A stretch of 64,000 nt of DNA from an uncultured Veillonellaceae bacterium (GCA_963805085.1 CAWDTA010000002.1:2048001-2112000), one strand, 5' to 3'. Shown: positions 1,560 through 56,610, numbered from the stretch's first letter. Numbers and translations: made by a program. Notes: a model not told the origin generated them from the sequence alone.

Positions 1560-1587
1560 TAGACAGAGAGAACCGTCAATTTGTATA
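1560..1587 (-). repeat. Border palindrome R, copy 1 (inverted)
   Basis: Reverse complement is TATACAAATTGACGGTTCTCTCTGTCTA. Confidence 0.75.
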
Positions 1588-2202
1588 TTTGGTTAAAGTC
1601 ACAAAAACCACTAGTTACCTGAGTTTGAAGGGGAGTTGGTGGTTTTTTTTGTGCTCTTGAGAAGGAAATTTTCACCTCTACCATGTAAAACACGGCTTAT
1701 GAAGGAGGTAAATAAAAACTCTTGATTATTCTTTAACGCTTCCTTTTAAAGCGTTAAAGAAAGTGGATTTTGTATGATTAATAATATATTTACAAAATAA
1801 AAAGTGAGAGTTGAGGTCTTTATTGACTTAGGTTCTTACTTTTTTATGTGACTATTTGATGAATACTCTAGGGCAAACTGAGCCAGCGTGGCTCAGTTCA
1901 AAAACGGAATAGTGGATCCGCCACACCGAGATATGCATTTGATGAAAAATCTAGAAATTGAGTGAAAGTCACGTAGACCTGGTCGTTATTTTAAGATTAG
2001 AATTATTGTCTCATAATTTTCTAATGAGTTGTGGTCTAATTGCTATTGGGATTATATAGGAATAATATTACAAAGTTACAAGTAGAGATTATAATTAAAA
2101 TATGAACTTAGATAATATATTGAATGAATTTTACATATAAAGTAAATATTGTACAATACTTACAATGCAAATAAACTGAAAAATATATAAAGAGGTGTTT
2201 AA

Positions 2203-3066
2203 ATGAGTAGTAAGTACAAAGCAAGTATAATAATTCCAACATACAATCGAAGGCATTTGCTGACCTTAACGTTAAAGTCACTCTGTCAACAAACCTTACC
2301 AAAAGAAGATTTCGAAGTAATCATAGTAGATGATGGTTCTACCGATGATACTAAAGAAGTAGTTGCTGATTTCTCAAATTCGTTAAATACAAAGTATATT
2401 TATCAAGAGAAAGATGGATTTAGAGTTGCTGCTGCGAGAAATAAAGGTATATTAAGTTCCGAGGGTAATATATGTATTTTTATAGATTGTGGAATTTTAT
2501 TAGGAACTACTGGTGTGGAAAAAAACGTTATATGTCACAGGTCAGACAATGAGAAAGCAGTTTTAGGATATATTTACGGTTTTGATGAATATAATGAAAA
2601 CGAAAAATATTTGTTAGATTTGAATATTGATCCCTTTAATGTTGATCAATATTTTGAAAGACTTCAAAACGATCGAATACTTGATTACAGAGACGACGTA
2701 TACCAAGAAATTGGAGATGATTTAACAACTTGGTCTGCCCCATGGTCTATATTTTTTACGGGATATGTTTCTGTCAAAAGAGATACTCTTATAAGGGTTG
2801 GTATGTTTGATGAGAGTTATACAACTTGGGGATGTGAAGACACTGATTTGGGTCTTTCCTTATATACAAATGGCGTTCAAATAGTTCTAGAACGTGATCT
2901 AAAATGTATTCATTATCCTCATGAAAAATCGAGATTCTCGGTTGGCGAAGATGCTATAAAAAAGAAAAAAGAATACTTGCATAAAAAATATAATTTAAAA
3001 TCTACCGAATTAGCTTTAACAACCCCAAGTCGTCAATTAAACCAGTTAATGTTTAAAAGTGTGTAG
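2203..3066 (+). CDS. GT2 glycosyltransferase
   Basis: SIIIPTYNR, IVDDGSTD, AAARNKG and GMFDESYTTWGCEDTDLG motifs; RBS GAGGTG. Confidence 0.9.
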   Translation: MSSKYKASIIIPTYNRRHLLTLTLKSLCQQTLPKEDFEVIIVDDGSTDDTKEVVADFSNSLNTKYIYQEKDGFRVAAARNKGILSSEGNICIFIDCGILLGTTGVEKNVICHRSDNEKAVLGYIYGFDEYNENEKYLLDLNIDPFNVDQYFERLQNDRILDYRDDVYQEIGDDLTTWSAPWSIFFTGYVSVKRDTLIRVGMFDESYTTWGCEDTDLGLSLYTNGVQIVLERDLKCIHYPHEKSRFSVGEDAIKKKKEYLHKKYNLKSTELALTTPSRQLNQLMFKSV

Positions 3067-3296
3067 ACTTATAGGATATATTAAGTTCTTAGGGGCTTCT
3101 AAAGCTTTCGAATCTAATGATACTTATGCTAGTAAATTATAATATATTTAGAGAAAAAAATTTAATGGAAACTACTAAGTAGAGTCTATGAATTTAAATG
3201 TCAAAAAAATTATAGCATTCTCAATTTACTGCGAATGCTTATAAGATTAAAAAATATGAGCTATATTTTTTTATTAGCTCTCTCTGGAGGATAAAA

Positions 3297-4154
3297 ATGT
3301 CGTTATTTACTATGAAACAACTCTTAGACGATGCGTATCAAAATCATTATGCTATTCCAGCATTCAATTTTGATAACTTTGAATTATTAGTGGGGGTTTT
3401 TCGCGGGGCGGAGGAAGCGCAGACACCTGTGATCATTCAAATTACGGAACCTGCAATAGAATGGTTAACTTTGAAAAATGTAGTATCTGTTGTAAAAAAT
3501 GAGGTAGAACGGTGCGGTTTACCTGTTGCGCTACATCTTGACCATGCAAGTAATTTCGATTTAATAAAATCATGTGTAAAAGCTGGATTTACCTCAGTAA
3601 TGATTGACTATTCTGATAAGGATATAAAGCAAAATATGGAGATGACTCGACAAGTAGTTGATTTTGCTAAGAAATTTAATGTATCAGTTGAGTCTGAGGT
3701 CGGTGTAGTATCAAATATTAATGAAACTAAAGAACTAAGTAATGACTTTACTAGTTTTGATCAAGCAATTGATTTTTGCCAATATACTCAAATTGACGTA
3801 TTAGGTATTTCAATAGGTAATACACACGGGATGAAAAATAGAACAGCTAGTCTAGATATAGAAAGACTAATACGTATAAATGATAAACTTCAAAAGCCTC
3901 TAGCACTTCATGGAAGTTCAGGTGTAAAGGAAGACGACCTTGTTAAGGCTACTAAATTTGGTGTTACAAAAGTAAATATAGAGACTGAATTAAGGGTAGC
4001 ATTTAAAAAAGCAATTGAAGAAATATTTAGAGATAAACCTAATGAAATAAAACCCAGAAATATTATGGCACAAGTACGCCAACGTATCAGTGAACACGTT
4101 ATCGAACATTATAAGCTGTTAAATTCATATGGCAAATGTGCAAATTTTAAGTAA
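3297..4154 (+). CDS. Class II fructose/tagatose-bisphosphate aldolase family protein
   Basis: YAIPAFN, ALHLDH, GFTSVMID, IGNTHG, LALHGSSG and KVNI motifs. Confidence 0.92.
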   Translation: MSLFTMKQLLDDAYQNHYAIPAFNFDNFELLVGVFRGAEEAQTPVIIQITEPAIEWLTLKNVVSVVKNEVERCGLPVALHLDHASNFDLIKSCVKAGFTSVMIDYSDKDIKQNMEMTRQVVDFAKKFNVSVESEVGVVSNINETKELSNDFTSFDQAIDFCQYTQIDVLGISIGNTHGMKNRTASLDIERLIRINDKLQKPLALHGSSGVKEDDLVKATKFGVTKVNIETELRVAFKKAIEEIFRDKPNEIKPRNIMAQVRQRISEHVIEHYKLLNSYGKCANFK

Positions 4155-4233
4155 TATGTTTTTGAAAGCAAGTAGTGAAAAGTACCATGGAGTTTTTCCA
4201 ACAACATAAAATTTGATTTTTATAATTTAAGGA

Positions 4234-4602
4234 GTGGATGAGATGGAAGCGATAACTAATGAAATCAATAATATTCAAGATTTATGCTTGGATATATATG
4301 GGCGATATGATATAGATAAATCTATGTTATGGATGGCGGAAGAATTTGGAGAGGTGATAGCTGCAATACGAAAGGGAAAAAGTAAAGATGATATATGCGG
4401 TGAAATAGGTGATCTAACGGCATGGATAATTTCAATATGTAATATTTTAGATATTAGCTTATCTACTGCTTTAAAAGGGACTTTTAAAAAAGAGGTAAAT
4501 AGGCAGTTGCGGACTTATGGAAAACTTAAATATGCACAAAATGAAGCAGCTAAAATTCTTCTGTTAGATATGTTTAATAATTATAAAGAAAAGAGTGTAT
4601 AA
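4234..4602 (+). CDS. MazG-like all-alpha NTP pyrophosphohydrolase
   Basis: WMAEEFGEV..AIRK..EIGDL (EExxE...ExxD) motif. Confidence 0.85.
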   Translation: MDEMEAITNEINNIQDLCLDIYGRYDIDKSMLWMAEEFGEVIAAIRKGKSKDDICGEIGDLTAWIISICNILDISLSTALKGTFKKEVNRQLRTYGKLKYAQNEAAKILLLDMFNNYKEKSV

Positions 4603-4605
4603 GCA

Positions 4606-5199
4606 TTGATTAATATAGGACTAGCTAAGGGTGTTGTTAAAAGCAAATCGCTTAAACTAATAGAAGAATTGGTAGGTGAAAAAACAGATAAAAATAAACT
4701 CAGCTTTTGTAATGAAGATTTTAGCACTTTTTTACTCAAGCACAGGGATATTCCCCAATTAATTGAAAAGGGGATCATTGATATAGGTATTACCTCAGAA
4801 GAGTGGATTGAGGAAAATGGAAGCTGCGTAGATATAATTGAAAAATTAGACTGGTGTGATACAAGAGTAAGTTTAATAAGTCCAGTGGAAAGTTCAGTTT
4901 TGGCAGGTGATCATCCTATTCATTGTGTTACCGAGTTTCCCAAAATTGCCGAGAAGTTCTTTAAAACGATAAATAGGAGTGATGTAAAAATTGAATTTAT
5001 ATCGGGCTCTTCGGAAGCGCTCGTCCCACGATTGTATGATTGTTGTATAGATTGTGTTGAAACAGGGAGTACACTAAAACTTCATAATCTTTATGAAGAG
5101 TACGTAATATTTAAATCCAAAATTGTATTAGTAACTAACATTAAAATTAAAAACAAAAATCAAGATATGATAGAAAGAATTAAGGATATAATCAAATAA
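4606..5199 (+). CDS. hisG: Short-form ATP phosphoribosyltransferase (HisG-like), outside a his operon
   Basis: LAKG, HRDIP, DIGIT, TEFP, GSSEA and IDCVETGSTL motifs; no C-terminal ACT domain. Confidence 0.8.
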   Translation: MINIGLAKGVVKSKSLKLIEELVGEKTDKNKLSFCNEDFSTFLLKHRDIPQLIEKGIIDIGITSEEWIEENGSCVDIIEKLDWCDTRVSLISPVESSVLAGDHPIHCVTEFPKIAEKFFKTINRSDVKIEFISGSSEALVPRLYDCCIDCVETGSTLKLHNLYEEYVIFKSKIVLVTNIKIKNKNQDMIERIKDIIK

Positions 5200-5208
5200 A
5201 GGATAAAG

Positions 5209-6543
5209 GTGTATGATGTGCAGTCATTAAGAGAGGTTGCTGCTGATGTAATAGAAAAGATTGTAATTAAAAGTTACCCCTTTTTATCTCTTGGTAAACC
5301 TATATCGTTAATAATGGATCAATTCGCTACCAAAGAATATGATCGTTTATTACAAGCAGCATTAAATATTGGTTATAGTATACAGGTTCTTTCGGTAGAA
5401 GGAGAAAGAGATGGAGTATTCTGTTCGGAAATGCAAACGTTTGAGGAAAGTTCAAAAAAACCAAACTTAATTATAGTTGTTGACCCCATAGATGGGACCC
5501 TTACCGGCTCTCGAGGTGGGGCTAGATGTTTATCTGTTATAGGTATATCTGAAAATAAAAAGGGAAAGTCGTTTAAAAAATTACCTGATTGTCTATCGTG
5601 TTTCTCTGTGGGAAGTCAAGAAAATAACAAATTTCTAGAACATCTCTGTGTGAATGGAAATAAGATAGGCTTGAATAATTTTGAAAAGGACTTTATGACA
5701 CTTAATATTTCTACGTTACATAGGGCGGAGACGAAAGAACTTTTTTCTAACTTATTAGGTTTAAGCGTAGAAGAATTCGAAAAGAAGTATAGATTTTCAA
5801 TTGGTGAAAGAACATTATATAGGCCTAATCTGGCATATAAAATGATTATCTTTGTGGGGGATACTTCTGTTTCTTTACCTTTAGAAACTAAAAATTTTAT
5901 AGGAAGAACAGGTATTGCAGAAGCAAGATTAGAGTCTAGTATGTGGAAATATTGGAGAGGTTTAATAGTATCGGGAAGTAAAATGAAACGGTATGAAGGC
6001 GGGCCAATTAAATATCTTATTGATAGAATGAATTGCGCCAACAATCAAAAAGATATAGATATAACGAGTTTGTTTGAAGAAAGTGAAATGAAAGCGATGC
6101 TGAACTATGGATGGAAATTAGGTGAGATTGCTTCCTTTTTAGAAAAGGATGAATTTACACCAGAATTTAAGTTGATATGCATTGCTTCCATTTCAGGAAC
6201 ACGTGATAGATATTTGAAATCAATGCAACTCGGGAATCTTAAGCCTTGCATGTTTATTCCGGAGAAAAACTCTATACTTTATGAGACTTGGATTGTCGAA
6301 GATGGTCTTCTGAAAAAGGAAAAAAAGGAATGCATAATTAATACCATCAATGATGATAAATGGTCAAAGTATATATTAGATTGGTATAAAAAGGGAAGTT
6401 GGTCAGAAGTGTTTGCTAGGGCTAGCAAACACATTGAAAATAGTTCTGATCAATATCAGGTATTAAATTTTTTGGCTAGGTTAGAAAGAGGAGAAAGCTT
6501 GACGAAAAAGGATGTTAAATATGCTTACAATGAGTTGCAGTGA
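5209..6543 (+). CDS. Divergent GlpX-like (FIG superfamily) sugar-bisphosphate phosphatase
   Basis: VEGERDG and VVDPIDGT resemble GlpX GEGERDE / AVDPxEGT; the rest is divergent. Confidence 0.6.
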   Translation: MYDVQSLREVAADVIEKIVIKSYPFLSLGKPISLIMDQFATKEYDRLLQAALNIGYSIQVLSVEGERDGVFCSEMQTFEESSKKPNLIIVVDPIDGTLTGSRGGARCLSVIGISENKKGKSFKKLPDCLSCFSVGSQENNKFLEHLCVNGNKIGLNNFEKDFMTLNISTLHRAETKELFSNLLGLSVEEFEKKYRFSIGERTLYRPNLAYKMIIFVGDTSVSLPLETKNFIGRTGIAEARLESSMWKYWRGLIVSGSKMKRYEGGPIKYLIDRMNCANNQKDIDITSLFEESEMKAMLNYGWKLGEIASFLEKDEFTPEFKLICIASISGTRDRYLKSMQLGNLKPCMFIPEKNSILYETWIVEDGLLKKEKKECIINTINDDKWSKYILDWYKKGSWSEVFARASKHIENSSDQYQVLNFLARLERGESLTKKDVKYAYNELQ

Positions 6544-7363
6544 ATTAAATGAACTGGAAAAGCTGGCTGTAGAACTACGTATTTTAATACTTAAAATGAT
6601 AGAAAAAAGTGGATCTGGTCATATAGGGGGTTCTTATTCCTGTCTTGAAATTTTAATAGCGCTATATAAAAAAATTATGAAACAGGATAGTAAAAATGCT
6701 AATTGGCAGAAGAGAGATCGATTTATTTTGAGTAAAGGCCACGCGGAAAGCGCTTTATATGCAGTCTTATACTCGGAAGGATACTTTCCGGCTAAATACA
6801 CTGAGACAATGAGAAAAATCGGATTTCCACTACAGGGTCATCCAAGTGCAAAATGGCTTAATGGCGTTGACTATTCAACGGGCTCACTTGGTCAGGGGTT
6901 GTCTTTTGGTGTAGGACAGGCTATTTGTGGAAAGAAACAAGGATTCAATGTATTTGTGATAGTTGGAGATGGTGAATTGCAAGAAGGTCAGATATGGGAA
7001 GCAGCTTTAACTGCGCCTAAATTCGAATTGAACAACTTGACTGTTTTTGTTGATTGTAATAAATTTCAACTAGAAAGTCCAACGCAAGTTACGGGTAATA
7101 TCGAAACGCTAGATCGAATGTGGAGTAGTCTGGGATGGGATGTTGTTCGAGTAAATGGTCATGATTTTATGGATATTGTTAACACATGCAGTAAATACCA
7201 GGATAGGCCAAGGATAATTTTAGCTGCGACGATAAAAGGTAAGGGTGTTTCATTTATGGAGAACAACAATGAGTATCATGGTAAAGGCTTAAGTAATAAG
7301 GAAATACAATTAGCTTTTATCGAATTATCGAAACATTATAATGAATTGTTGCGGAAGGATTAG
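6512..7363 (+). CDS. Transketolase N-terminal subunit
   Basis: SGHIGGS, RDRFILSKGH, STGSLGQG, GDGELQEG and TIKGKGVSFME motifs. Confidence 0.93.
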   Translation: MLNMLTMSCSELNELEKLAVELRILILKMIEKSGSGHIGGSYSCLEILIALYKKIMKQDSKNANWQKRDRFILSKGHAESALYAVLYSEGYFPAKYTETMRKIGFPLQGHPSAKWLNGVDYSTGSLGQGLSFGVGQAICGKKQGFNVFVIVGDGELQEGQIWEAALTAPKFELNNLTVFVDCNKFQLESPTQVTGNIETLDRMWSSLGWDVVRVNGHDFMDIVNTCSKYQDRPRIILAATIKGKGVSFMENNNEYHGKGLSNKEIQLAFIELSKHYNELLRKD

Positions 7364-7364
7364 G

Positions 7365-8297
7365 GTGAAAAAATTGGAGGCACTTAGAGATGCAATAGGT
7401 ACACAATTGGTTAATCTGGGGAAAAAAATTAACAAATTAGTAGTTATTGATTGTGATATGGCTAAACATACAAGACTAAGTAATTTCTTTACAAATTTCC
7501 CTGAGCGAGGTTATCAGGTAGGGATTTGTGAACAAAATGCTATAAGCGTTGCAGCTGGAATCGCTAGTTGTGGTGATATACCGCTAGTTTCATCCTTTAG
7601 TGCTTTTATTGCAACACGATGTTGGGAGCAAATAAGACATAGTATAGCGTATAACAATACTAATGTAAAAATATTGGCAACTCATGGGGGATTATCCGCT
7701 GCAGAAGATGGAGGATCTCATCAATGCTTGGAAGACTTTGCTTTAATGAATGTATTACCTAACATGGTAGTGTTAGTTCCAGCAGATCCAGAAGAAGCAA
7801 GACAAGCAATAACTTTTGCGTTAGAGTATACTGGTCCTGTTTATATAAGAATAGGAAGAGATGCTGTAGATACTATTATGCCTAATCATTACAAATTTGA
7901 ACTGGGCAAGGCAATATGTTTAAGTGATGGGGAAGAAGTTGCAATCATTTCGACAGGAGAAATTACTCAAGAAGTTATAAAAGCAAAAGAATTATTAAAA
8001 GAACATAACTTAAATATAAAGGTAATACACGTTCCGTGTTTAAAACCAATCGATTTTTCAACCCTCACATCGTTGGTTGGAGATAGTAAATATATAGTTA
8101 CAGTAGAAGAACACTCTATATATGGTGGGCTAGGAGCCATTATTGCTACTAACTTTTTAGGGGAAATAACCCCTCTAAAGTTTAAAAGCATTGGCATGGA
8201 AACATTCGGAGAAAGCGGGAAAAGTGGAGAGTTAAAGGGAAAATATGGTTTAGATTGTATCGGAATTGCAAAAACTATATTGGAGTTATTGGTTTAA
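7365..8297 (+). CDS. Transketolase C-terminal subunit
   Basis: GICEQN, DGGSHQ, GPVYIR and VEEHSIYGGLG motifs; GTG start right after the N-subunit stop. Confidence 0.92.
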   Translation: MKKLEALRDAIGTQLVNLGKKINKLVVIDCDMAKHTRLSNFFTNFPERGYQVGICEQNAISVAAGIASCGDIPLVSSFSAFIATRCWEQIRHSIAYNNTNVKILATHGGLSAAEDGGSHQCLEDFALMNVLPNMVVLVPADPEEARQAITFALEYTGPVYIRIGRDAVDTIMPNHYKFELGKAICLSDGEEVAIISTGEITQEVIKAKELLKEHNLNIKVIHVPCLKPIDFSTLTSLVGDSKYIVTVEEHSIYGGLGAIIATNFLGEITPLKFKSIGMETFGESGKSGELKGKYGLDCIGIAKTILELLV

Positions 8298-8375
8298 CTT
8301 GTGGAAAAGCCTCTAACAGTATACTTGCGTTATCTTAGTCAGGGGTATGTTCATAAAAAAGACGGAGGAAATATA

Positions 8376-8978: not shown

Positions 8979-9141
8979 AGTATTTGTTCTACTGAAGGGA
9001 TTGCTTCTTCAAAAAAATAACATTTATGACAAAAATAAATAGGATTTTTAATAAAGATGTAGAAATGTAATAAAATCATACTAAATACTGTTGGTATAAT
9101 AACTGGAACTAAAAAGTTAAATGATAAAAGGAGTTTTAAAC

Positions 9142-10173: not shown

Positions 10174-10227
10174 AATTAAGTTTGCACATAAAAATATCTG
10201 ACTAAATATTTTTCAGGAGGTTTTTTT

Positions 10228-11028: not shown

Positions 11029-11154
11029 AAGACTGAGTGACGGTTCTTGTGTCTACATGGTCACCAATAAAGTGGTATTTAGCTAGAGATTGGGAAGAAT
11101 ACTCATAATAAAATTCTAGACTGAGGACGGTCTGCAGTGCAGTCTCTTTGCCTA
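11029..11154 (+). repeat. Border palindrome R, copy 2 (11029-11055), plus an interrupted variant (11117-11154)
   Basis: AAGACTGAGTGACGGTTCTTGTGTCTA and TAGACTGAGGACGG..TCTCTTTGCCTA. Confidence 0.75.
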
Positions 11155-11181
11155 GAATGGGCATTGAAAAGATGAATTATT

Positions 11182-11846: not shown

Positions 11847-11857
11847 AACAAAACCTC

Positions 11858-13266: not shown

Positions 13267-13353
13267 ATGTCTTTAATAAACATTTCAAATCTGACCTTTG
13301 GTTATGACGGCAGTTACGATAACATATTCGAAAAGGTAAGTTTTCAAATAGAT
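13267..13353 (+). pseudogene. First 29 codons of an Lsa/CplR-family ABC-F ribosomal protection gene
   Basis: MSLINISNLTFGYDGSYDNIFEKVSFQID, cut exactly at palindrome R3. Confidence 0.8.
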
Positions 13354-13380
13354 AGACTAAGTGACGGTTCTCTTTGTCTA
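13353..13380 (+). repeat. Border palindrome R, copy 3 (best consensus match)
   Basis: TAGACTAAGTGACGGTTCTCTTTGTCTA. Confidence 0.85.
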
Positions 13381-13437
13381 AAATAGTCATAAAAATAAGT
13401 GTATTTTTTAAGAAAAGTTGTTAGATTATTTCACATT

Positions 13438-13540
13438 AAACAAATAGAGCATGTACAAAATTCAAGAATAACTTGAATTGTACATGCTCTATTTGTTTAT
13501 TTCTGGTTTGTCTGTTCTACCAACGAGGTAATCAAGTGAA
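13438..13540. repeat. Hairpin A copy 2, plus a 3' remnant of the 11233 xre gene
   Basis: Matches 11182-11285. Confidence 0.85.
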
Positions 13541-13576: not shown

Positions 13577-13975
13577 TTAATTCTTTTTGTTTTTTTCTTT
13601 CACATGCCAAAAACTAAATTCTAATGCCGTCCGTAGTTTAGCCTTGTCCTCAGCATCAAGGTGATAAATCTCACCATCGAACATAATTTCTGCTTGTTCG
13701 AGGAACATTGCCAAGTCTGTGAGAGCTTTTTTATTTTCAGATGATTCAGAGGGGGTAGGCTGGTTATCTAATATTTCATCAGCAGTAACATTGAAAATTT
13801 TTGTAAGTTGGTTTATGTGATCAATATTTAATTTTCTGCCACCGCGACCAGTTTCTAAATCATAATAATATTGCGGAGATATATTCATTAATTTTGCAAT
13901 TATATTGCCTGAACGTAATGCTTTATCAGGGTGTGTTTGGCGAATTTTCCTCAAGTTATTAGGTGATTCACTCAT
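13577..13975 (-). CDS. Xre/ImmR-like repressor with C-terminal domain
   Basis: LRKIR..ISPQYYYDLETG..IFNVTADEIL; C-terminal IMFDGE..LDAEDK. Confidence 0.8.
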   Translation of the reverse strand: MSESPNNLRKIRQTHPDKALRSGNIIAKLMNISPQYYYDLETGRGGRKLNIDHINQLTKIFNVTADEILDNQPTPSESSENKKALTDLAMFLEQAEIMFDGEIYHLDAEDKAKLRTALEFSFWHVKEKNKKN

Positions 13976-14435
13976 AAGTTATAACCTCGCCTTTTCGTCT
14001 ATTTGTTGAATCGAGATAATAGTATTATCAAATATAATTTAAATCATCGAATTGATGATAATAAGAGTAAATGAAAGTAAATTGACAAAAAACAGAGGAT
14101 TAGTTATAAAATAGACATCAATTGATTAGTATGACATTTGAAAAGTATCGTCAATTTGTTTATAATAATAAGTAATTAATCAGCAATATGTTGACTGATT
14201 GATTTTTAAATAATAGGTGGGAGCTCATTTTCATCTACATTTTCTAAAATAAATACATAAATATTCTAAGATATCTCAAAAAGTAAAAATCTATATAAAC
14301 TTAATTATACCCGATATTGAATATAGTTCCTAGTAAAATCAAGAAAATGACAAAAATTAAGCTTGTGTTGGATGTATCTGTACATAGAAAACTCTAGTGA
14401 CTGATAACGAAATAACAATTGGAGGGGGATTTACT

Positions 14436-14729
14436 ATGGTAAAGAGTGTGTTTGACTTGTTGGCTTCTACGATAAAGCATGAGAAATTGATTGATTTACA
14501 ATTGGAGAAATATTCTAGTGAGTATTATTATGCGAATGAAAAAGTTCTTGCGTATCAGAAACAAATCAAGAGTGCATTGCCATTAGAGTTGCAGGAAACT
14601 TTGATAGAGCTTGATGATGAATATAGTAGTATGCTGAGCAGCGGAATGGACATATATTATCGGCAAGGATTTTCCGATGCAGTTCAGTTGATTATGGAGT
14701 CTTTAACTTGGGCTCCAACGAGAAGTTGA
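14436..14729 (+). CDS. Module protein B, copy 2
   Basis: Near-identical to 12150-12443, including about 140 bp of upstream DNA. Confidence 0.85.
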   Translation: MVKSVFDLLASTIKHEKLIDLQLEKYSSEYYYANEKVLAYQKQIKSALPLELQETLIELDDEYSSMLSSGMDIYYRQGFSDAVQLIMESLTWAPTRS

Positions 14730-15702: not shown

Positions 15703-15727
15703 AGACTAAGTGATGTTTTCTTGTATA
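15703..15727 (+). repeat. Border palindrome R, copy 4 (degenerate)
   Basis: AGACTAAGTGATGTTTTCTTGTATA. Confidence 0.55.
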
Positions 15728-15941
15728 ATAACAGAGGAAGCATTAAATTAGAAGGCGTGAGAAGATGCATTATGGTCTGAATCGCTTAAACGATTATTTG
15801 TTTAAAGAGATTTTGGCAGGAATTCTGCTTTTTTTAGGGAACTTTCTAATGAAATATAGTACATTGGAATGAATTGATAATGTGTCGTAGCATACGGTTG
15901 ATACTATAAACCATCTAAACAGAAATAAGGAGTTTTGTCTG

Positions 15942-20494: not shown

Positions 20495-22018
20495 ATGAAT
20501 ATGTATTTGCTTTTTATGATTGCATTGATACCAATCGTTTGGCTAATGGTTTCATTGGTAGGGTTAAAGATAGCAGGGCATAAAACAACCCCGCTTAGCC
20601 TTGGTATAACGCTTATGCTAGCAATAACTGTATGGGGAATGCCAGCAATCGATGCGGTGAGCGCAGGACTAGAGGGAGCGGCTATGGCCATATGGCCGAT
20701 TATGATTGTTATTATTGCCGCTGTATTTATTTATAATCTGTCGCTGTACACAAAGGGGATGGATGTTATTACGAGTATGATGACAGGTATAACAACAGAT
20801 CAAAGAATATTAGTGCTTATCCTAGCATGGGGGTTTGGCGGATTTCTTGAGGCTATTGCCGGTTTTGGGACGGCTGTTGCTATTCCGGCCAGCATTATGG
20901 CGGCACTTGGCTTTGAACCTGTTTTCGCGGCAATTATCTGTCTAATTGCCAATACTACGCCAACCGCCTTTGGCGCTATAGGGCTTCCGGTATCAACACT
21001 TGCCCAAGTTGCCGGTCTTGAGGTAAACGAATTAAGTTATGCGATAGCACTTCAGCTTGTACTCTTAATTGTTATTGTTCCCATGGTATTAGTTATGATT
21101 ACGGGAAAAAGTGTCAAGGCCATTAAGGGGGTTTTTGGCATCTCGCTGGTATCAGGGTTAGCGTTTGCTGTTCCGCAACTGCTAGCAAGTAAGTATATGG
21201 GCGCGGAACTTCCAGCCATTCTCGGTTCTGTAGTGTGTTTAGTCACAACAATTGCTTGGGCTAAACTATATCATAAAGATAAAGCACAAAAAAATGCAAA
21301 AAAGATATCCACGAGGCAAGCATGCATGGCTTGGCTGCCATTTGTCTTAGTATTCCTCATTATAATTGCCACAAGCTCGTTATTTCCCAGTATCAATAAA
21401 ATGTTAGCGGCAGTGCAAACTGCAGTAAACATTTACAGCGGTCCTGGCGGTCATCCCTATTCCTTTGTCTGGCTCGCTAATCCAGGTACGCTTATTATCT
21501 TTGCAGGGATTATCGGAGGCTTGCTGCAAGGAATAAAGCTTACTGAAGTAGTTGGTGTCTTAGGGAAGACGGTTAGGCAAATGACCAATTCCGCCATTAC
21601 TATAGTTTCTATTGTAGCACTGGCAAAAGTTATGAGTTATAGTGGCATGATCAAGTCAATAGCCGTAGTTTTAGTTTCGGTAACAGGCTCAGCCTATCCC
21701 CTCATAGCGCCTGTTATCGGAGCACTTGGCACTTTTGTAACAGGCAGTGATACATCGGCAAACGTATTGTTCGGCGGGCTGCAAGTCGAAGCGGCTAGAT
21801 CACTCTCGTTGAATCCCTATTGGTTAGCTGCAGCTAATGCGGCAGGCGCAACTGCAGGCAAGATGATATCACCACAAAGCATTGCTGTTGCCACTGCTGC
21901 TACAGGACTTGCGGGTGCAGAGGGCAAAATATTATCAGCTACTTTACGCTTTTGTATGGTTTATGTAATTATATTAGGCATCGTGACATTCCTAATGGAA
22001 CCGATTTTTGTAGACTGA
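20495..22018 (+). CDS. lctP: L-lactate permease (LctP family)
   Basis: FGGFLEAIAGFG, ANTTPTAFGAIG, GSDTSANVLFG and GKMISPQSIA motifs. Confidence 0.93.
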   Translation: MNMYLLFMIALIPIVWLMVSLVGLKIAGHKTTPLSLGITLMLAITVWGMPAIDAVSAGLEGAAMAIWPIMIVIIAAVFIYNLSLYTKGMDVITSMMTGITTDQRILVLILAWGFGGFLEAIAGFGTAVAIPASIMAALGFEPVFAAIICLIANTTPTAFGAIGLPVSTLAQVAGLEVNELSYAIALQLVLLIVIVPMVLVMITGKSVKAIKGVFGISLVSGLAFAVPQLLASKYMGAELPAILGSVVCLVTTIAWAKLYHKDKAQKNAKKISTRQACMAWLPFVLVFLIIIATSSLFPSINKMLAAVQTAVNIYSGPGGHPYSFVWLANPGTLIIFAGIIGGLLQGIKLTEVVGVLGKTVRQMTNSAITIVSIVALAKVMSYSGMIKSIAVVLVSVTGSAYPLIAPVIGALGTFVTGSDTSANVLFGGLQVEAARSLSLNPYWLAAANAAGATAGKMISPQSIAVATAATGLAGAEGKILSATLRFCMVYVIILGIVTFLMEPIFVD

Positions 22019-22040
22019 GTGACGGTTCTCTTTAGTACTA
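22011..22040 (+). repeat. Border palindrome R, copy 5 (supplies the lctP stop codon)
   Basis: TAGACTGAGTGACGGTTCTCTTTAGTACTA. Confidence 0.8.
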
Positions 22041-24295: not shown

Positions 24296-24485
24296 AAGAC
24301 ATAGTGACGGTTCTTGTGTCTAAAAGAAGGATACAAAAGAATGAATTATTAAACAAATGGAGCATGTACAAATTCAAAAAAAACCTGAATTGTACATGCT
24401 CTATTTGTTTATTTCTGATTTGTCCGTTCTACCAACGAGGTAATCAAGCGAAACATCAAAGTGATTAGCTAAAGCAAGAAGAACC
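24296..24485. repeat. Palindrome R copy 6 (24296-24322) plus hairpin A copy 3 with xre 3' remnant
   Basis: AAGACATAGTGACGGTTCTTGTGTCTA; 24351-24485 matches 11182-11317. Confidence 0.85.
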
Positions 24486-28422: not shown

Positions 28423-28757
28423 TAGACAGAGTGACGGTTCTTGTGTCTAAAATAAGGATACAAAAAAATGAATTATTAAACAAATGGAGCATGTAAAATT
28501 CAAGAATAACCTGAATTTCACATGCTCTATTTGTTTATTTCTGATTTGTCCGTTCTACCAACGAGGTAATCAAGTGAAGAATGACATTTTTCGCGAATGA
28601 AAAGGCTTGAAGTATTAATTATTTTTATGTTTGTTTTTTTTATATGCTAAAAACTAAATTCTAATGCCGTTTGTAGCTTAATCTTGTCCTCGGTATCAAG
28701 GTGATAAATCTCATCATCGAATATAATTTCTGCTTGATCAAGGAACATTGCCAAGTC
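28423..28757. repeat. Palindrome R copy 7, hairpin A copy 4 and a 3' remnant of the 13577 repressor
   Basis: TAGACAGAGTGACGGTTCTTGTGTCTA; 28478-28757 aligns with 13438-13717. Confidence 0.85.
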
Positions 28758-32884: not shown

Positions 32885-33083
32885 AAGACAATTTGACGAT
32901 TCTATTTGCCTAAAATTACCATAGGTGAATATCTTATAAAAAGGCAACTCATTTAATCTACTTAATTGAGTTAAGCAAATAGGGCATGTACAAAATTCAA
33001 GAATAACTTGAATAGTACATCCTCTATTTGTTTATTTCTGGTTTGTCCGATCGCCCTACAAAATAATCAAGTGAAACATAAAA
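32885..33083. repeat. Degenerate palindrome R copy 8 plus hairpin A copy 5
   Basis: AAGACAATTTGACGATTCTATTTGCCTA; hairpin at 32973-33033. Confidence 0.7.
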
Positions 33084-34789: not shown

Positions 34790-34825
34790 TAGACTAAGTG
34801 GCGCTTCTCTTTGTCTCAATTTACC
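34790..34825 (+). repeat. Palindrome R copy 9 (variant)
   Basis: TAGACTAAGTGGCGCTTCTCTTTGTCTCAATTTACC. Confidence 0.75.
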
Positions 34826-34879: not shown

Positions 34880-36481
34880 TTACCTGAATGAAGTTATAAA
34901 AGAGTTAAATAATACTCTGGTATCATATTGGTATTGATTCATAGGAACGACTTCTTTGCTTAATTTGAGGAGAGAATAAACAGCCATTTGGGCTGATCGC
35001 ACCGAATATTCTACTGTAAAAACAACATCGTCAGGTATTTCAGCGAACTGCCCAAGGAATGCGAGATTTGTTGACCCTTTTGGTACGACATCAGGTCTAT
35101 CACCTTTTGCTCTTGGCATAAACTGACTTGTTATGAATGGCATCATGCACGGAATACAGTTAGATGTCTTGAGGATTAACGGTAAGTCTTCATTGAATCT
35201 GAGATGAGAGCACAGCTCAGTAAGTATTTCTTCACCGGTGCATTCCGACATTTTTTTTGGTATATAGTTACCTATTTTATTAGGGAATAAGCTATATCCC
35301 CAAAAGACTTTGATGTTTTCAGGCTGATTCATAAAATGCGGTTGATATGCCAAAACAATCGACATAAACCAATTTGAGTCTTTAAAAGTAACCAAAGCTC
35401 CTGTTCCAGGTGTATTACCAGAGAATTTTTCCATTAAATCAAAGAATATTGGATCTTTACAAGTAACCGTAAACGATTCCCATAGTGATTCAGCAATATG
35501 ATCTGCGAAAGCAGAAGGATTGCCCAAATCAGGCTGTTTCTTTACGATATTCTCCCATAGCTTGAATGAAGCTCCCTTAGATCCAAGACTAGGAGCAGAG
35601 GTCATAGATCCGAGGCTGTAACCTTCTGTCATAGAACCATTGGTGACAAAAACCATGTCGGTATTTTTAATCTCAATGTCCTTTTGTTTTCCATCATTAA
35701 TATAATGAATACGTTCGACGGTCTTTTCATTTTGAGATGCTTTAAAATCTAGGTCAGTTACTCGACAATTCATTTCAAAGTTGACGCCTTGTGCTCCTAG
35801 CCATTTTATAAGAGGTAATATTATAGAATCATATTGGTTGTATGGCGTGCGGGTTACGCCTTCTAAAGTTTGAATACGAGGAAATTCATGTATAAATCTA
35901 AGCAGATATCGTTTAAATTCTACTGCGCTATGCCAAGGTTGAAATGCAAAAGTGGTAGCCCACATATACCAAAAGGGTGTTTGGAAGAATGAGGGTGAAA
36001 AGCATTTGTCAATTGTTAATGTTCCTAGGACATCTTCAGGCGTTATTGTGAGTTTCATTAAATCGATCCGGTCTTTGTTGCTAAAACCCATAGAGGATAC
36101 ATTAACTATTTTCCCATTTTCATCTACTAGCCTAGCTTTAGCTTGAGTTCTAACTTTTGTATCAAATTCAACGATTTCGTCTCTCACTGATTTTTGGGGA
36201 TCGCTAATGGAAGGAATGAATTTTAGCAGTTCCCAAGTACATTCATAAGCTTCGTCATTCAACATTCTGCCGCCACGAACGACATAACCCTTTTCAGGTG
36301 AGCCTATACCATCACAACTTCCACCAGTTATTTTCATTTCTTCAAAAATGGTTATATTCTTTCCTGGAATATGACCATCTCTAATCAAATAGACAGCAGC
36401 AGCGAGTGAGCCAACGCCAGCTCCAACGAAATACGCGTTTATTTCATTCCTTACACCAGTTGTTTGGTAAGCATTTGTCAT
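34880..36481 (-). CDS. ohyA: Oleate hydratase (MCRA family)
   Basis: GAGVGSLAAAVYLIRD, GGSCDG, RGGRM, YNQYDS and VFTVEYSVR motifs. Confidence 0.93.
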   Translation of the reverse strand: MTNAYQTTGVRNEINAYFVGAGVGSLAAAVYLIRDGHIPGKNITIFEEMKITGGSCDGIGSPEKGYVVRGGRMLNDEAYECTWELLKFIPSISDPQKSVRDEIVEFDTKVRTQAKARLVDENGKIVNVSSMGFSNKDRIDLMKLTITPEDVLGTLTIDKCFSPSFFQTPFWYMWATTFAFQPWHSAVEFKRYLLRFIHEFPRIQTLEGVTRTPYNQYDSIILPLIKWLGAQGVNFEMNCRVTDLDFKASQNEKTVERIHYINDGKQKDIEIKNTDMVFVTNGSMTEGYSLGSMTSAPSLGSKGASFKLWENIVKKQPDLGNPSAFADHIAESLWESFTVTCKDPIFFDLMEKFSGNTPGTGALVTFKDSNWFMSIVLAYQPHFMNQPENIKVFWGYSLFPNKIGNYIPKKMSECTGEEILTELCSHLRFNEDLPLILKTSNCIPCMMPFITSQFMPRAKGDRPDVVPKGSTNLAFLGQFAEIPDDVVFTVEYSVRSAQMAVYSLLKLSKEVVPMNQYQYDTRVLFNSFITSFR

Positions 36482-36606: not shown

Positions 36607-36750
36607 TAGACTAAGTGGCGCGCTTTTCCTTGTCTCAATTTACCATAAGCAAGCGCATTGTTTAGGAGGGAATTTGTTAAATAAATAGAGCATGTACAAA
36701 GCTCAAGAATAACTTGAATTGTACATGCTCTATTTGTTTATTTCTGGTTT
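36607..36750. repeat. Palindrome R copy 10 plus hairpin A copy 6
   Basis: TAGACTAAGTGGCGCGCTTTTCCTTGTCTCAATTTACC; hairpin at 36679-36739. Confidence 0.8.
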
Positions 36751-46077: not shown

Positions 46078-46181
46078 TCAATGTAATGTTTCTCTTTGTC
46101 TTAACTTTGATATAAGCAAATGATAAAGAATATAAGAAAGTAAAAACTCCAACTGATTTTGGTGTCAGTTGGAGTTTTTAT
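46078..46181 (+). repeat. Degenerate palindrome R copy 11 plus terminator block, repeated at 50466-50573 (copy 12)
   Basis: Both share ..GTTTCTCyTTGT..GATAAAGAATATAAGAAAGyAAAAACTCCAACTGATTTT..CAGTTGGAGTTTTTAT. Confidence 0.75.
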
Positions 46182-48307: not shown

Positions 48308-48619
48308 TATAAGACAACCATACAAGGTGGCGGTTTGCAGTGATTTAAATTGTCATGAGCGGGAATATGCCATAGTATAATAGTAAAATTTTTCTGCTTT
48401 TTAGTTATTTGTTAATCGTGCTCGGGGATAGCAAGCCCATAATAATTAAGAGTAATTTCAACTAATTGGGCGATAGCTTTGTTTTTTAGTGAAAAACATA
48501 GTGGAAAATAAAGGGAAATTGGTATTGGGGGCGAAATAATTATCTTGGATAAGCATTAGCAGTCATATAACGATATTTATTGCTTATTGAAACTTTAATT
48601 TAGTGTAGGAGGGGCTTGT

Positions 48620-50465: not shown

Positions 50466-50718
50466 TATACAAAGTGATGTTTCTCCTTGTATAAACTTTC
50501 ATCTAAACAAACGATAAAGAATATAAGAAAGCAAAAACTCCAACTGATTTTGAGATGCAGTTGGAGTTTTTATTTAGACCAAGAGGCAATAGGATAGACT
50601 GTTTGCAAATTCATAGATTGCAATCTGCTTGGTAATACTAAGCCTAATCTACATAATAGAGGAAATCAAAAAATAGATTTTATTAAAACTTGACTACCTA
50701 TTCATAGAGGTGATAATA

Positions 50719-51853: not shown

Positions 51854-51936
51854 GGCATAAATTTAATTAGGTTTGTTTAAAACCTTTTCAAAAATATTCT
51901 CACTTTTAATCGTATTGTTTGTAATGAGATACTATT

Positions 51937-51960
51937 AAAAGTGAAGGTTTTCTTTGTCTA
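51937..51960 (+). repeat. Degenerate palindrome R copy 13
   Basis: AAAAGTGAAGGTTTTCTTTGTCTA. Confidence 0.55.
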
Positions 51961-53639: not shown

Positions 53640-54003
53640 CAATTATCTGGTGGTTAAAAATATTTTAATCAAAATTTTACAGTAATAGCCCCTTGTAAGA
53701 CTTGTGTGTGTGATATAATATATGGAAAATGGCAAAGGTTGGTTGTATCTTGCGGATGTTATAGACTTGTATAGCGATAAATTTGTAGATAGCTCCATGT
53801 CTGCAAGCCTTTTTGGTACGTTCAAAACTGAGTTGATTTATCATGGAAAATATAGAACCAGGAATCAGGCAGGAGCTGCTATCTTAGATTATGCTGAATC
53901 ATTCTATAATAGAATCCAACATCAGGCAAGGCTTGGATACAATTTTCCAGAAAATTATGAAAAACTTAGAATTTCAGCGTATGGATGTATCTGGCTGAGC
54001 TGA
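53640..54003 (+). pseudogene. Degenerate IS3-family transposase (rve core) remnant
   Basis: GWLYLADVIDLYS..FGTFKTELI..FYNR..LGY, with an internal deletion. Confidence 0.85.
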
Positions 54004-55748: not shown

Positions 55749-55995
55749 CAAGCTAGCGGTGACAGTACATTTTGACGACTTAAATATTATTTCGAACAGG
55801 CCCGATGAAACAATTGGGTGATTCGCCTCCGTTGATTAAATACTGCAATTAATTGAATCCGCCAGTTTCGCGTTTTTTTGCTTTGATGATGAAAAATTTA
55901 AAGTTGAATTGGGAATTAGGCTTTAGTTACAACGAGTGTTTTGCATATTGAAGCAGGAGTACCTTGCTTATGATTAGCAAAGTACTCCTATTTTT

Positions 55996-56130
55996 TTAGG
56001 TGTTTGGATGATTTGGTCGGTCTACTCCAGCAATAAACTTAGCATTTTTTATATCTTGTTTTTTTTCTTCAGTACTTCTTCCTTTTTTGCTTTGCTGTTT
56101 TTCCAAGTCGCTGCTTTTTGTGTGAGTCAT
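55996..56130 (-). CDS. 44-aa small basic protein, probably spore-related
   Basis: MTHTKSSDLEKQQSKKGRSTEEKKQDIKNAKFIAGVDRPNHPNT; RBS GGAGGTGA; downstream terminator. Confidence 0.65.
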   Translation of the reverse strand: MTHTKSSDLEKQQSKKGRSTEEKKQDIKNAKFIAGVDRPNHPNT

Positions 56131-56266
56131 ACAATCACCTCCCGATTATAGTGTTTACGTTTAGCAATTGAGATATGTAATCGAAGGATATTGTTAAGTA
56201 TTGTTAATATCGCGACTTAGATTTGTTTTTTATATAGCAAATTGAAAGAAATTTAATGAAAAAATA

Positions 56267-56419
56267 TTATTCAAAAAAGTCTGCACGCATTGGTATAAAT
56301 GCATCGAAGATGATAGAATCATCTTCAAGTGCTACAACTCCATGAATTACATTTTTGGCTGCGTGATAGGAGTCGCCCTTTTTAACAATTTTTTTCTCGT
56401 CTCCAAAGATAAGCTCGAA
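56267..56419 (-). pseudogene. 3' fragment of a KdgF-like cupin gene
   Basis: FELIFGDEKKIVKKGDSY..NVIHGVVALE..FDAFIPMRADFFE*. Confidence 0.7.
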
Positions 56420-56583
56420 GATCGATTCCATCATGAAAATATTGCTGGAATATAAAGTGAGCCATTAAAACTGAAAAGGTCTTAATGGCTTTTTGCGTTT
56501 GTAGACTGTCGATGATTGTAAAAAAGAAAATAATTTTAGAAATTAACAAATAAAAAAGATTTATTTGTTAATTAGTCTATACC

Positions 56584-56610
56584 TAGACCAAAATAACCGT
56601 CACTTTGTCG
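56584..56610 (-). repeat. Palindrome R copy 14 (inverted)
   Basis: Reverse complement is CGACAAAGTGACGGTTATTTTGGTCTA. Confidence 0.7.

Follow-up and report, generated by a model that had tools for sequence, protein, structure and literature searches.

The Y1/HUH transposons of the IS200/IS605 family (IS200, IS608 and ISDra2) end in subterminal hairpins of the same orientation, lack inverted repeats and insert 3′ of a fixed 4- to 5-nt target, and in IS200 the left-end hairpin precedes another one in which the start codon is sequestered. REP/RAYT systems were reportedly described by Nunvar in 2010. A classical RAYT gene is present once per genome, is passed on vertically and is accompanied by tens to hundreds of REPs across core intergenic regions. 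REP/RAYT and REPIN systems are also treated in Bertels and Rainey (2011) and Bertels et al. (2017, PMC5581495), and the latter describes Group 1 RAYTs as the most IS-like and as occurring in Clostridia. TIRtrons and their TIR-associated tyrosine transposases (TIRYT) were the subject of Di Nocera, De Gregorio and Rocco (2013, PMC3733652). Quentin et al. (2018, PMC6006769) placed TnpA-REP proteins with a C-terminal helix-turn-helix (HTH) in subclass 2.1 and found no REP-like sequences beside subclass 2.1 genes. According to the last two papers, self-complementary TIRs exist and make up moderately abundant families arranged as dimers or clusters.

The element analyzed here, termed P, is a repeated 28-base palindrome in a 64-kb stretch of DNA (the window) from a genome of 4.21 Mb (G000). 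The original prediction had listed 15 copies in the window, and a profile built from 14 window copies and then run on the whole genome bore out that the repeat is real; it recovered 14 of the 15 positions, a result that is partly circular for the window copies since the profile was made from them. A consensus scan allowing up to 3 mismatches found 3 sites (0.00 expected from 100 shuffles), and most copies are separated from the consensus by more than 3 mismatches or by indels. At E ≤ 0.3, the profile identified 42 copies genome-wide, and the 28 matches outside the window are independent of the copies used for training. As anticipated, the copies cluster in a few islands: the window of 64 kb holds 14 of the 42 and C1:313-348 kb another 11, so that two islands account for 25, and most copies are solo rather than arranged in inverted doublets. 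Such clustering goes far beyond that of usual REP-like repeats, which speaks against the explanation that we favor below. The predicted orientation was also correct, with 13 window copies on the plus strand and 2, at 1560 and 56584, on the minus strand; neither the clustering nor the shared orientation of 13 of 15 copies is expected from plain random insertion, and both would follow from duplication of module borders.

All window copies are intergenic, as judged by Pfam analysis of 49 window ORFs, in line with the claim that every copy lies between unrelated gene blocks; genome-wide, 0 of the 42 copies fall in an ORF of ≥150 aa (stop to stop), and such ORFs make up 81% of the sequence. The inverted pair at 1560..1587 (−; profile 1559-1590(−), E 2.6e-4) and 11029..11055 (+; profile 11027, E 9.8e-4) brackets, as had been noted, the glycosyltransferase-to-His_Phos block at 2203-10935. 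It is followed by a disrupted copy at 11117..11154 (+), which the genome-wide profile missed and which carries, by eye, approximately 11 extra loop bases (CTGCAGTGCAG). The best copy, an exact consensus match, lies at 13353..13380 (+; profile 13350, E 4e-7), and its 5′ edge truncates an ABC-F (Lsa-like) gene, whose remnant of 29 codons (13267..13353, +) runs into P; the ORF goes on in the same-genus genome G001, and that continuation is absent from G000. The proposed cut at codon 29 of lsa and the proposed supply of the lctP stop codon were thus both confirmed, the latter by a TGA at 22016-22018 within the copy at 22011..22038 (+; profile 22010, E 5.2e-4). The lctP gene itself is essentially full length (profile positions 3-521 of 522, Pfam), and the 3′ arm of this copy is replaced in G000 and intact in G001. 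The two copies said to flank ohyA as direct repeats, at 34790..34817 (+; profile 34786, E 5.3e-6) and 36607..36636 (+; profile 36603, E 2.4e-3; 2-base loop insertion), do enclose this MCRA family oleate hydratase gene (34880..36481, −) as cargo, share private variants (GTGGCGC; GTCTCAATTTACC) and are mutually the closest of all P copies.

Further plus-strand copies lie at 24296..24322 (profile 24293, E 7.1e-4), 28423..28449 (profile 28421, E 1.9e-4), 32885..32912 (profile 32882, E 2.1e-3) and 50466..50493 (profile 50462, E 1.8e-4), the last directly past a His_Phos_1 stop codon, and a minus-strand copy lies at 56584..56611 (profile 56582-56611(−), E 9.4e-4). Decayed plus-strand copies are found at 15703..15730 (profile 15699, E 0.21), where G000 and G001 diverge inside the loop, at 46078..46105 (profile 46070, E 0.065), after a small acid-soluble spore protein gene, and at 51933..51960 (profile 51930, E 9.6e-3), the latter two having lost the 5′ arm. 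A P-related half-copy of a second hairpin family, in which the left half of P is joined to TGCAGTGA (48319..48350, +), was absent from the original list. Most window copies are decayed: DNA folds of the window hairpins range from −0.3 to −4.9 kcal/mol, the best copies attain −4.9 to −5.0, and those at 22011 (−0.3) and 36607 (−1.3) fold no better than shuffles. The copies in the window belong to another subtype (TAGACTRAG...CTCTTTGTCTA) than those beside the intact transposase genes described below (AAGACAAGG...TTTTTGTCTT), a difference that counts against our favored explanation, and no transposase gene linked to the window subtype was found.

A second repeat, comprising a 65-nt hairpin (T), an Xre gene and a DUF6809 gene, marks the modules equally well as P. 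The T hairpin, a near-perfect palindrome (−26.6 kcal/mol; 13433..13509, unstranded), is the terminator of the minus-strand Xre gene; 7 of its 9 genome copies fall within the window (starting at 11177, 13433, 24345, 28471, 32968, 36674 and 40574), and it comes next after the P copies at 11117, 24296, 28423 and 36607. The Xre-type HTH gene at 13577..13975 (−) is the only intact one among the repeated module heads. The DUF6809 gene at 14397..14729 (+) has paralogues at 12111-12443 and 24928-25293 and remnants near 15135, 15616, 27829, 33926 and 45682. The array also contains a MazEF toxin-antitoxin pair.

Pairwise comparison of the flanks of the 42 copies (861 pairs) revealed similarity for 30 pairs on the 3′ side, for 1 on the 5′ side and for 0 with shuffled flanks. 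Because similarity is nearly restricted to the 3′ side, we take the 5′ edge of P to be its outer end. The asymmetry agrees with an attC-like site no better than with P as the outer end of a transposable or linker unit.

The enzyme behind P had been guessed to be an HUH Y1 transposase encoded elsewhere, and this was right in kind. Two intact transposase genes, each encoding 250 aa, are bracketed by inverted copies of P, one at C4:178279-179028 (P at 179107(−) and 178247(+)) and one at C2:537731-538480 (P on both sides); the genes are 90% identical, and the two loci are similar only between the outer edges of P. The protein matches PF01797 (Y1_Tnp; E 6.7e-15), DNHAHLL and YIHKNP motifs are seen in its translation, and it scores 75.6 bits against NF047646 (REP-associated tyrosine transposase; cut-off 80), with 81.3 for an orthologue in G019, a genome of another bacterial family. 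At E ≤ 0.001, Pfam gave Y1_Tnp as the sole match in the 250-aa protein and no hit to a C-terminal HTH or Bac_DnaA_C-like domain such as that of subclass 2.1, and residues 166-243 of the G019 orthologue weakly match a PHROG transcriptional regulator (E 0.0046). After the left P, a second hairpin sequesters the transposase start codon (RNA fold, −33.7 kcal/mol; z, −6.5), and in G000 the gene also occurs as at least 7 fragments. Of 41 genomes, only G000 and G019 have the gene at ≥75% identity, the orthologue in the latter being 75% identical, whereas the best match in a same-genus genome is 36% identical; P matches number 20 in G000, 6 in G019 and at most 2 in any other. Since the P count tracks the presence of the gene, this supports the link between P and the transposase. 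Of 50 homologous loci, 12 near-full-length homologues were examined. Homologues from other phyla, at 31-42% identity, have hairpins in inverted orientation on either side; the loop (GGGACGGTTC) is that of P, and the stems differ from those of P but stay complementary. Flanking hairpins with the core GGGACGGT[TC]C occur in 8 of the 12, one-base variants in 2 and other inverted repeats in 2, and the 31 hairpins display 27 distinct stems around the common core, demonstrating a hairpin with a conserved loop. Collectively, these sequence comparisons support P as the putative terminal hairpin of a RAYT/TIRYT-type Y1/HUH transposase unit.

Like TIRtrons, this unit has a RAYT-like Y1/HUH gene between inverted repeats, and the longer protein (250 aa) with its C-terminal extension is reminiscent of subclass 2.1 and TIRYT. 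The TIR motif GGGGWSAS given in the available text of PMC3733652 and PMC6006769 is close to GGGGACGG, found in 8 of the 12 relatives, and to GGTGACGG in G000, where a second family has GGGGACAG, an exact fit. In contrast to TIRYT, P is a genuine hairpin whose loop of 10-11 nt is conserved and whose stems, though always complementary, vary among taxa, the transposase is multicopy with many fragments, and P is concentrated at the borders of cassette-like arrays, an arrangement that the available portions of the same two papers do not describe. As in REP/RAYT systems, a Y1 transposase is bracketed by inverted copies of a short palindrome, further copies of which occur elsewhere without autonomy; all copies are extragenic, and inverted doublets as in REPINs exist in the form of 470-bp linkers. 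However, unlike the single-copy RAYTs, the transposase gene in G000 is represented by 2 intact and at least 7 broken copies and has a 75% orthologue in another family, and there are only approximately 42 copies of P, mostly solo and in islands. With IS200/IS605, the unit shares the Y1/HUH fold family, the start-codon hairpin of IS200 and a strand bias relative to replication, 29 of the 42 copies lying on the positive-GC-skew strand, although these copies are not independent. Membership in IS200/IS605 is ruled against by the inverted P ends and by the 5′ flanks, of which a single pair is similar, and inspection by eye of the sequence 5′ of the listed copies showed no common motif.

Comparison with relatives demonstrated that P edges coincide with strain differences, as had been predicted, both in G001 and in metagenome contigs that lack the P-ohyA-P segment. 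Six breakpoints (13354, 15711, 22033, 32878, 34781 and 36608) lie at P or ≤9 nt from it, but at varying sites: at the 5′ edge or 7-9 nt outside it, within the loop or in the 3′ arm. At 32878, 7 nt before the copy at 32885, G001 and the metagenome contigs diverge from G000, and their ORF continues there. About half of the breakpoints (at least 6, e.g., 31165, 33107, 34059, 36756 and 38369/39307) are without P, and several joints fall at T or in DUF6809 remnants (34059 to 36756 in 4 runs, 34113 to 40638, and 36676). The contigs of relatives without P-ohyA-P come from 3 runs in 3 studies and leave a loose end at 36608; a sister P pair flanking a segment that is missing in relatives is what site-specific integration would give and runs counter to our favored explanation. 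The empty allele at ohyA consists of 32 unrelated bases and has no P, and in the close relative L069 the ohyA block occurs without flanking P. G004, from another family, has a homologous island with the same cargo genes and few copies of P.

P also recurs at the borders of two further cassette-like arrays, making three arrays in two bacterial families, which hints at more than a passive presence. On contig C1, the first gene of an array is rumA-like and intact, and its tail recurs four times downstream in the same orientation; its 4-5 linkers of approximately 470 bp each consist of P(+), the last 75 rumA-like codons, a terminator and P(−), and their flanks are unrelated to each other. In G019, P separates orphan toxin-tip/immunity modules downstream of a 2027-aa haemagglutinin-repeat protein, like those of the orphan toxin/immunity arrays in polymorphic toxin loci (CDI, Rhs). 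The growth of the latter is ascribed to homologous recombination, a picture to which the Y1 transposase gene and hairpin inside the G019 array are foreign.

On balance, we consider it probable that P is a REP- or TIR-like terminal hairpin repeat of a Y1/HUH transposable unit, and that the window copies are solo non-autonomous ends. The autonomous unit would be approximately 860 bp long and would run from P through the hairpin hiding the start codon and the gene for the 250-aa transposase to an inverted P, both P copies having their 5′ edge on the outside; the window copies would be solo, mostly decayed ends without autonomy. P would lie at the seams of gene blocks because its copies are the ends of inserted or linker units, because P persists only between genes and because the array is a highly plastic accessory one of repeated heads (P, the 65-nt T hairpin, Xre and DUF6809). 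Duplication, deletion and replacement in the array would break repeatedly at or beside the repeats. We infer that P is where the transposase nicks and joins DNA, and some junctions, such as the ABC-F truncation and the lost P arms, may be by-products of its activity. For none of the solo copies was a clean insertion with a corresponding empty site found, so that their mobility, too, is putative, a point against this explanation. The data can be accounted for without a dedicated capture function.

Such a function was the core of the original prediction. In a refined form of it, a Y1/HUH enzyme would nick P in single-stranded DNA and link the end to foreign DNA or to a second P, so that inter-P segments are excised, integrated or captured from one end and integron-like arrays arise without IntI or attC. 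The HUH enzyme, the islands and the breakpoints of this proposal stood, and it draws further on the three P-bordered arrays, one with the Y1 gene inside, on the sister P flanks of the missing ohyA segment, on the 470-bp linkers as multiplied non-transposase DNA between P ends and on a strand bias like that of the IS200/IS605 single-stranded DNA transposons. However, searches for an excised form or circle junction with a P-P joint, a one-P empty site and a cassette with P at both ends in two places found none of these, and the varied junction positions, the breakpoints without P, the P-less ohyA alleles, the few copies beside the same cargo in G004 and the decayed hairpins do not bear out integron-like capture at P; we regard this reading as unlikely. 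The array does resemble integrons in that unrelated genes, MazEF among them, are separated by imperfect palindromes foldable in single-stranded DNA. However, attC cassettes are promoterless with the site at the 3′ end, whereas the modules here have their own Xre/DUF6809 regulators and promoters and genes on both strands, without a common promoter. Neither IntI nor another tyrosine recombinase (PF00589) lies near the array (49 window and 10 flank ORFs), and P, with 28 bp and a 10-nt conserved loop, is not an attC site (57-141 bp, R''-L''/L'-R' boxes and extrahelical bases). Somewhat less likely still is that homologous recombination between long linkers (the ~1-kb T-Xre-DUF6809 heads and the 415-bp rumA tail on C1) does the shuffling, with P as a passenger. 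The heads recur at 74-99% identity in the window and at ~80-87% in G001, G004 and L069, T is concentrated in the window, several joints fall at T or DUF6809 remnants, and Campbell-type integration into a rumA-like tail would yield the layout of the C1 array, but this leaves unexplained the exact termination of the linkers at the outer edge of P, the tie between P and a transposase, and the disruption by P of genes such as the ABC-F gene at codon 29.

REP elements can act as terminators, mRNA-stabilizing hairpins or protein-binding sites, and a purely regulatory or structural P without a role in rearrangement would accord with the many copies 0-30 nt past stop codons and with the T run after three copies outside the window. 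This is nevertheless very improbable: the window hairpins are weak and are followed by A-rich rather than T-rich sequence, P has no Rfam match, structure beside P shows no excess genome-wide (15/42 versus a 26% background, p 0.60), and P truncates ORFs, sits at strain breakpoints and brackets a transposase gene. The least probable reading of all is a dif- or pdif-like system in which a tyrosine or serine recombinase would act on P as its core site, the arms being 9 bp and the spacer 10 bp long. With inverted arms around an asymmetric spacer and a total of 28 bp, P has something of a dif site, and its modules resemble pdif modules, which are flanked by such sites. However, Xer/dif sites have an 11-6-11 layout bound by XerC/D, whereas P is laid out 9-10-9, and it is the loop of P that is conserved while the arms vary across taxa, the reverse of sites whose arms are bound. 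No recombinase domain was detected in the 49 window ORFs, except for two IS fragments, or in the 10 flank ORFs scanned (9 upstream, 1 downstream), and the genome-wide search, which covered the tyrosine recombinase family PF00589, gave three matches (C5:313 kb, C2:942 kb and C4:2.6 kb), of which only the last, a 44-residue fragment, is near a P island.

With P as the terminal hairpin of a Y1/HUH unit, its position at the seams of a fast-changing accessory block makes it a candidate driver of gene shuffling, a role that is plausible but unproven.

The palindrome of about 28 bp that recurs in the window, here called P, has the consensus TAGACwAAG-TGACGGTTCT-CTTTGTCTA. Its existence as a repeat was borne out: the strict consensus matched three sites at up to three mismatches against 0.00 expected. 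A profile, for which 14 of the window copies were used, was run on all 4.21 Mb in five contigs (C1 to C5) and recovered 14 of the 15 positions of the original prediction; the copy at 11117 has about 11 additional loop bases and is recognised by eye only. Folded as single-stranded DNA, the best copies reach −4.9 to −5.0 kcal/mol, the folds of those at 22011 and 36607 do not surpass those of shuffled sequences, and several window copies are worn out. The predicted surroundings of P also held: an ABC-F (Lsa-like) ORF is interrupted after codon 29, the stop of lctP falls within P although lctP is nonetheless full length, ohyA lies between two sister copies in direct orientation, an inverted pair brackets 2203-10935, and the gene blocks between copies differ in function (Pfam, 49 window ORFs). 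Rfam gave no matches in the window at gathering thresholds and, at E ≤ 1 across 32800-36800, none on P; there, a long hairpin called T (described below) matched microRNA and sRNA models below threshold.

At E ≤ 0.3 the profile found 42 copies in the genome, 14 of them in the window, which makes up 1.5% of it, and 11 at C1:313-348 kb; smaller groups lie near C5:16-37 kb, C2:538-546 kb and C2:1.44-1.45 Mb and on C4. None of the 42 is located inside a stop-to-stop ORF of at least 150 aa, although 81% of the genome falls within ORFs of that kind. In 29 of 42 copies the strand of P is that of positive GC skew, a bias that is only suggestive given that the copies are non-independent. When the flanks of all 42 were compared, the 68 nt past the 3′ edge were similar in 30 of 861 pairs, involving 21 copies, and those past the 5′ edge in one of 861; shuffled flanks gave none. 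The 5′ edge is thus the outer end of the unit to which P belongs, with variable partner DNA on the 5′ side. A preference of P for sites upstream of terminators was rejected: the succession of P and a hairpin is confined to the window array, and for the 100 nt next to the 3′ edge, folds of −20 kcal/mol or below were obtained in 15 of 42 copies versus 26% of 600 intergenic background windows (Mann-Whitney p 0.60). Likewise, a fixed loop break after GACGGTT was discarded as evidence of a nick site, since the left half mostly occurs as part of another family of hairpins (GACGGTTTGCAGTGCTTCAAAAATTCGGAC), which has this half in common with P and then continues as TGCAGTGCTTCAAAAATTCGGACACTGTCCC. This family has five clear copies plus degenerate ones, those listed lying at window 48319, C5:19305, C3:8985, C3:12013, C2:1952113 and C4:185867. 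Viral contigs contained no exact match to RGTGACGGTTCTYTTTGTCT.

The genome carries two copies of a gene for a 250-aa protein, at C4:178279-179028 and C2:537731-538480, each with P before it and an inverted P after it. The two genes are 90% identical, and when the loci are aligned, similarity starts and stops at the outer P edges. A PF01797 match (E 6.7e-15) identifies the protein as a Y1/HUH transposase. On the model for REP-associated tyrosine transposases, NF047646 (cut-off 80 bits), it scores 75.6 bits, and an orthologue with 75% identity from G019, a complete genome belonging to a different family, scores 81.3. A further hairpin lies between P and the transposase start codon, with the start codon paired within it, and as RNA the leader from G019 folds at −33.7 kcal/mol (z −6.5). 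At least seven fragments of the transposase gene are dispersed among the P islands. Two further Y1 gene families, which share about 40% and 34% identity with the P-linked gene, occur at C2:249008, 549008, 554226 and 802138 and C3:14513, and at C2:1948648, 1951296 and 2044273; they have inverted ends of their own, GGGACAAGGGGACAGGTTTGCTGTCCC in one and GGGGACGTTCCTTTTT in the other, and the end of one family, GGGGACAG, matches the published TIRYT motif. Altogether, Y1 matches number 25 in this genome versus at most six in 40 related genomes. The P-linked gene at 75% identity or more was present in this genome and G019 only, among 41 related genomes, and P matches were also highest in these two (20 and 6), the others having at most two and control counts being 0-2. 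The linkage of P to an HUH transposase is firm. No tyrosine recombinase (PF00589, whole genome) lies near any P island, apart from a 44-residue fragment at C4:2.6 kb.

A scan of species genomes yielded 50 loci with transposase homologues, and flanking hairpins were inspected at 12 near-full-length matches. Eight of the 12 (Atribacterota, Sporomusa, a Bacillota MAG, Syntrophomonadaceae, Soehngenia and three from Gudongella) are flanked by inverted hairpins whose core is GGGACGGT[TC]C, two have one-base variants of the core, and two have other inverted repeats. Across 31 hairpins, the columns of the loop (GGGACGGTTC) show no or almost no variation, whereas 27 versions of the stem occur with complementarity kept, for example, GTCAA/TTGAC, GGGAC/GTCCC, AGAC/GTCT and GATAAAAGG/CCTTTTATC; the stems were listed sequence by sequence, as the MAFFT alignment is gapless and holds them in two registers. 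Since hairpins with the same loop flank the homologues and the number of P copies follows the gene, P is the end-hairpin that belongs to this family of transposases.

Within the window, boundaries are marked by a second element besides P. T, a near-perfect 65-nt hairpin (−26.6 kcal/mol), has nine copies in the genome, seven of them in the window, and P precedes six of these seven within about 60 nt. A minus-strand Xre-type HTH gene, which faces a plus-strand DUF6809 gene, has T as its terminator. The resulting head of P, T, Xre and DUF6809 is intact once, at 13353-14729, and the others are decayed; heads or remnants lie at 11177-15700, 24345-25293, 28471-28760, 32968-34113, 36674-36800 and 40574-40650. 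Most heads are decayed, whereas the cargo genes are intact. The head also occurs with differing cargo in G001 (a genome of the same genus), in G004 (a genome of another family) and in a metagenome contig. A genome-wide tie between P and DUF6809 was ruled out by the C1 island, which has no DUF6809; the paralogues found in the genome are those of the window and three distant ones. DUF6809 was not mentioned in the literature searched, and a Protein Atlas query returned unnamed or DUF6809 clusters only (0.87-0.88).

Other features of the window were recorded alongside. All four metagenome runs contain a presence/absence variant that includes a MazE/MazF toxin-antitoxin pair of the array (34144-34778). 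In the lactate-utilisation cluster, the two electron-transfer flavoprotein genes are separated by about eight units of an 11-nt tandem repeat, TGATTATATAG (17575-17684), and a collagen-triple-helix repeat protein is encoded at 56626-57474 (−) with a DNA period of 9 nt. Two paralogous small genes, at 45805-46052 and 57725-57998, are about 81% identical in DNA and appear to resemble small acid-soluble spore proteins, a name taken from reading the translation; a decayed P follows the former, in G004 too. Other mobile elements are represented by fragments of an IS5-like transposase (DUF772) and of an integrase core (rve_2), at 2-1159 and 53722-54003.

Arrays with P exist elsewhere as well. On C1, an array headed by an intact rumA-like methyltransferase gene (C1:310549-311916) consists of unrelated genes parted by a linker of about 470 bp, composed in order of P(+), the last 75 rumA-like codons, their terminator, about 100 nt and P(−). 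Four further occurrences of this linker, about 85-96% identical, share the constant junction GTCTA|CAGATGTT, and their flanks are unrelated; its topology is that of the transposase unit, with the tail of the rumA-like gene replacing the transposase. The same island contains a giant ORF (about 5,800 aa; L059:7514-L060:4985, two pieces of C1; C1:315514-332985) that is preceded by a P(−) copy and is considered repetitive because it is open on both strands. In G019, orphan toxin-tip and immunity modules (YezG-like) downstream of a 2027-aa haemagglutinin-repeat protein are interspersed with five P(+) copies and the transposase gene.

We compared the window with G001, which is about 96% identical. 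Similarity ends at P at 13354 (its edge), 15711 (inside), 22033 (inside, the 3′ arm being kept in G001) and 32878 (7 nt before), and also at two P-free sites, 31165 and 33107. Simple insertion at 13353 was excluded, and the junction is instead ascribed to deletion or replacement, because the ABC-F continuation present in G001 is found nowhere in the window's genome. The alpha/beta-hydrolase gene of G001 that corresponds to 31165-32878 (L006:1-2020, a piece of G001:C225) has direct repeats of about 60 nt on both sides, and its ORF extends into more coding sequence; upstream of it lies DNA that is 37 kb distant in the window's genome (C2:2041588-2042187).

The metagenome comparison used contigs only, from four runs of four studies and mostly 90-99% identical, and uncovered parts (ohyA in most runs, for instance) count as absent only where a contig bridges them. 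In three runs a joint connects 34781 to 36676, with P-ohyA-P gone and 32 unrelated bases in its place; in all four, another connects 34059 to 36756, with MazEF and T removed as well. In one contig, similarity to the window stops at the 5′ edge of P (36608), and further joints are without P. On L069, a 112-kb metagenome contig, the ohyA block (34845-36570) is 95% identical, has no flanking P, and sits inside an intact P-T-Xre-DUF6809 module, adjoining a mannosyltransferase gene. The homologous island of G004 is poor in P; its cargo genes are the same, with 76-87% identity, and are arranged in a different order.

The seams of three arrays carry P with its outer edge facing the variable DNA, and several strain breakpoints coincide with P, so P ends have been sites of DNA joining. 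Such joining might reflect a single-strand-DNA cassette system of Firmicutes, an integron analogue made up of a TIRYT-kind Y1/HUH transposase and the P hairpin, although we consider this improbable. The enzyme would nick P at its foot or loop, the outer edge would be joined to other DNA, and P-ended linkers would gather unrelated genes into arrays, of accessory metabolism in the window, of orphan toxin/immunity modules in G019 and anchored by rumA on C1; a transposase fold would thus do an integrase's job. A dedicated capture system is similarly doubtful, as neither an excised form nor an empty site keeping a single P was found, junction positions vary, many breakpoints lack P, P copies are decayed and cargo also exists without P. 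A purely passive P, on the other hand, accords poorly with its extreme clustering, its uniform orientation and the recurrence of the same pattern in G019. The pattern is best read as the ends of transposable or linker units, for which a capture function would be unnecessary.

Among the nearest described kinds, as far as the accessible text of these sources goes, are the TIRtrons/TIRYT (PMC3733652) and the subclass 2.1 TnpA-REP with a C-terminal HTH (PMC6006769); for the HTH-bearing subclass 2.1, that text reports no REP-like sequence or associated hairpin (Quentin et al. 2018, PMC6006769), and Group 1 RAYTs are described as IS-like and present in Clostridia (Bertels et al., PMC5581495). A conserved-loop hairpin and its position at array borders are not described in the accessible portions of PMC3733652, PMC6006769 and PMC5581495, and relatives of the transposase might be listed in the supplements of Bertels 2017 (RAYT group lists) and Di Nocera 2013 (TIR figures). 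Literature searches with P motif strings gave primer-like chance matches only, and those on REP-associated tyrosine transposases in Firmicutes returned nothing relevant.

RAYT/TIRYT transposases are widespread, and their genomic effect is still debated. Our comparisons would give the HTH-bearing subclass a defined hairpin, the loop of which is unchanged from genomes of the class Clostridia to one of Atribacterota, and they show this hairpin where gene blocks meet in three rapidly changing arrays, adjoining presence/absence variants in the population. If the enzyme does not join DNA at P, an odd repeat is still explained, and palindrome-marked block boundaries can be mere transposon ends. If it does, Gram-positive anaerobes would have a new way of accreting genes, and P with its transposase would offer a simple system for in vitro testing.
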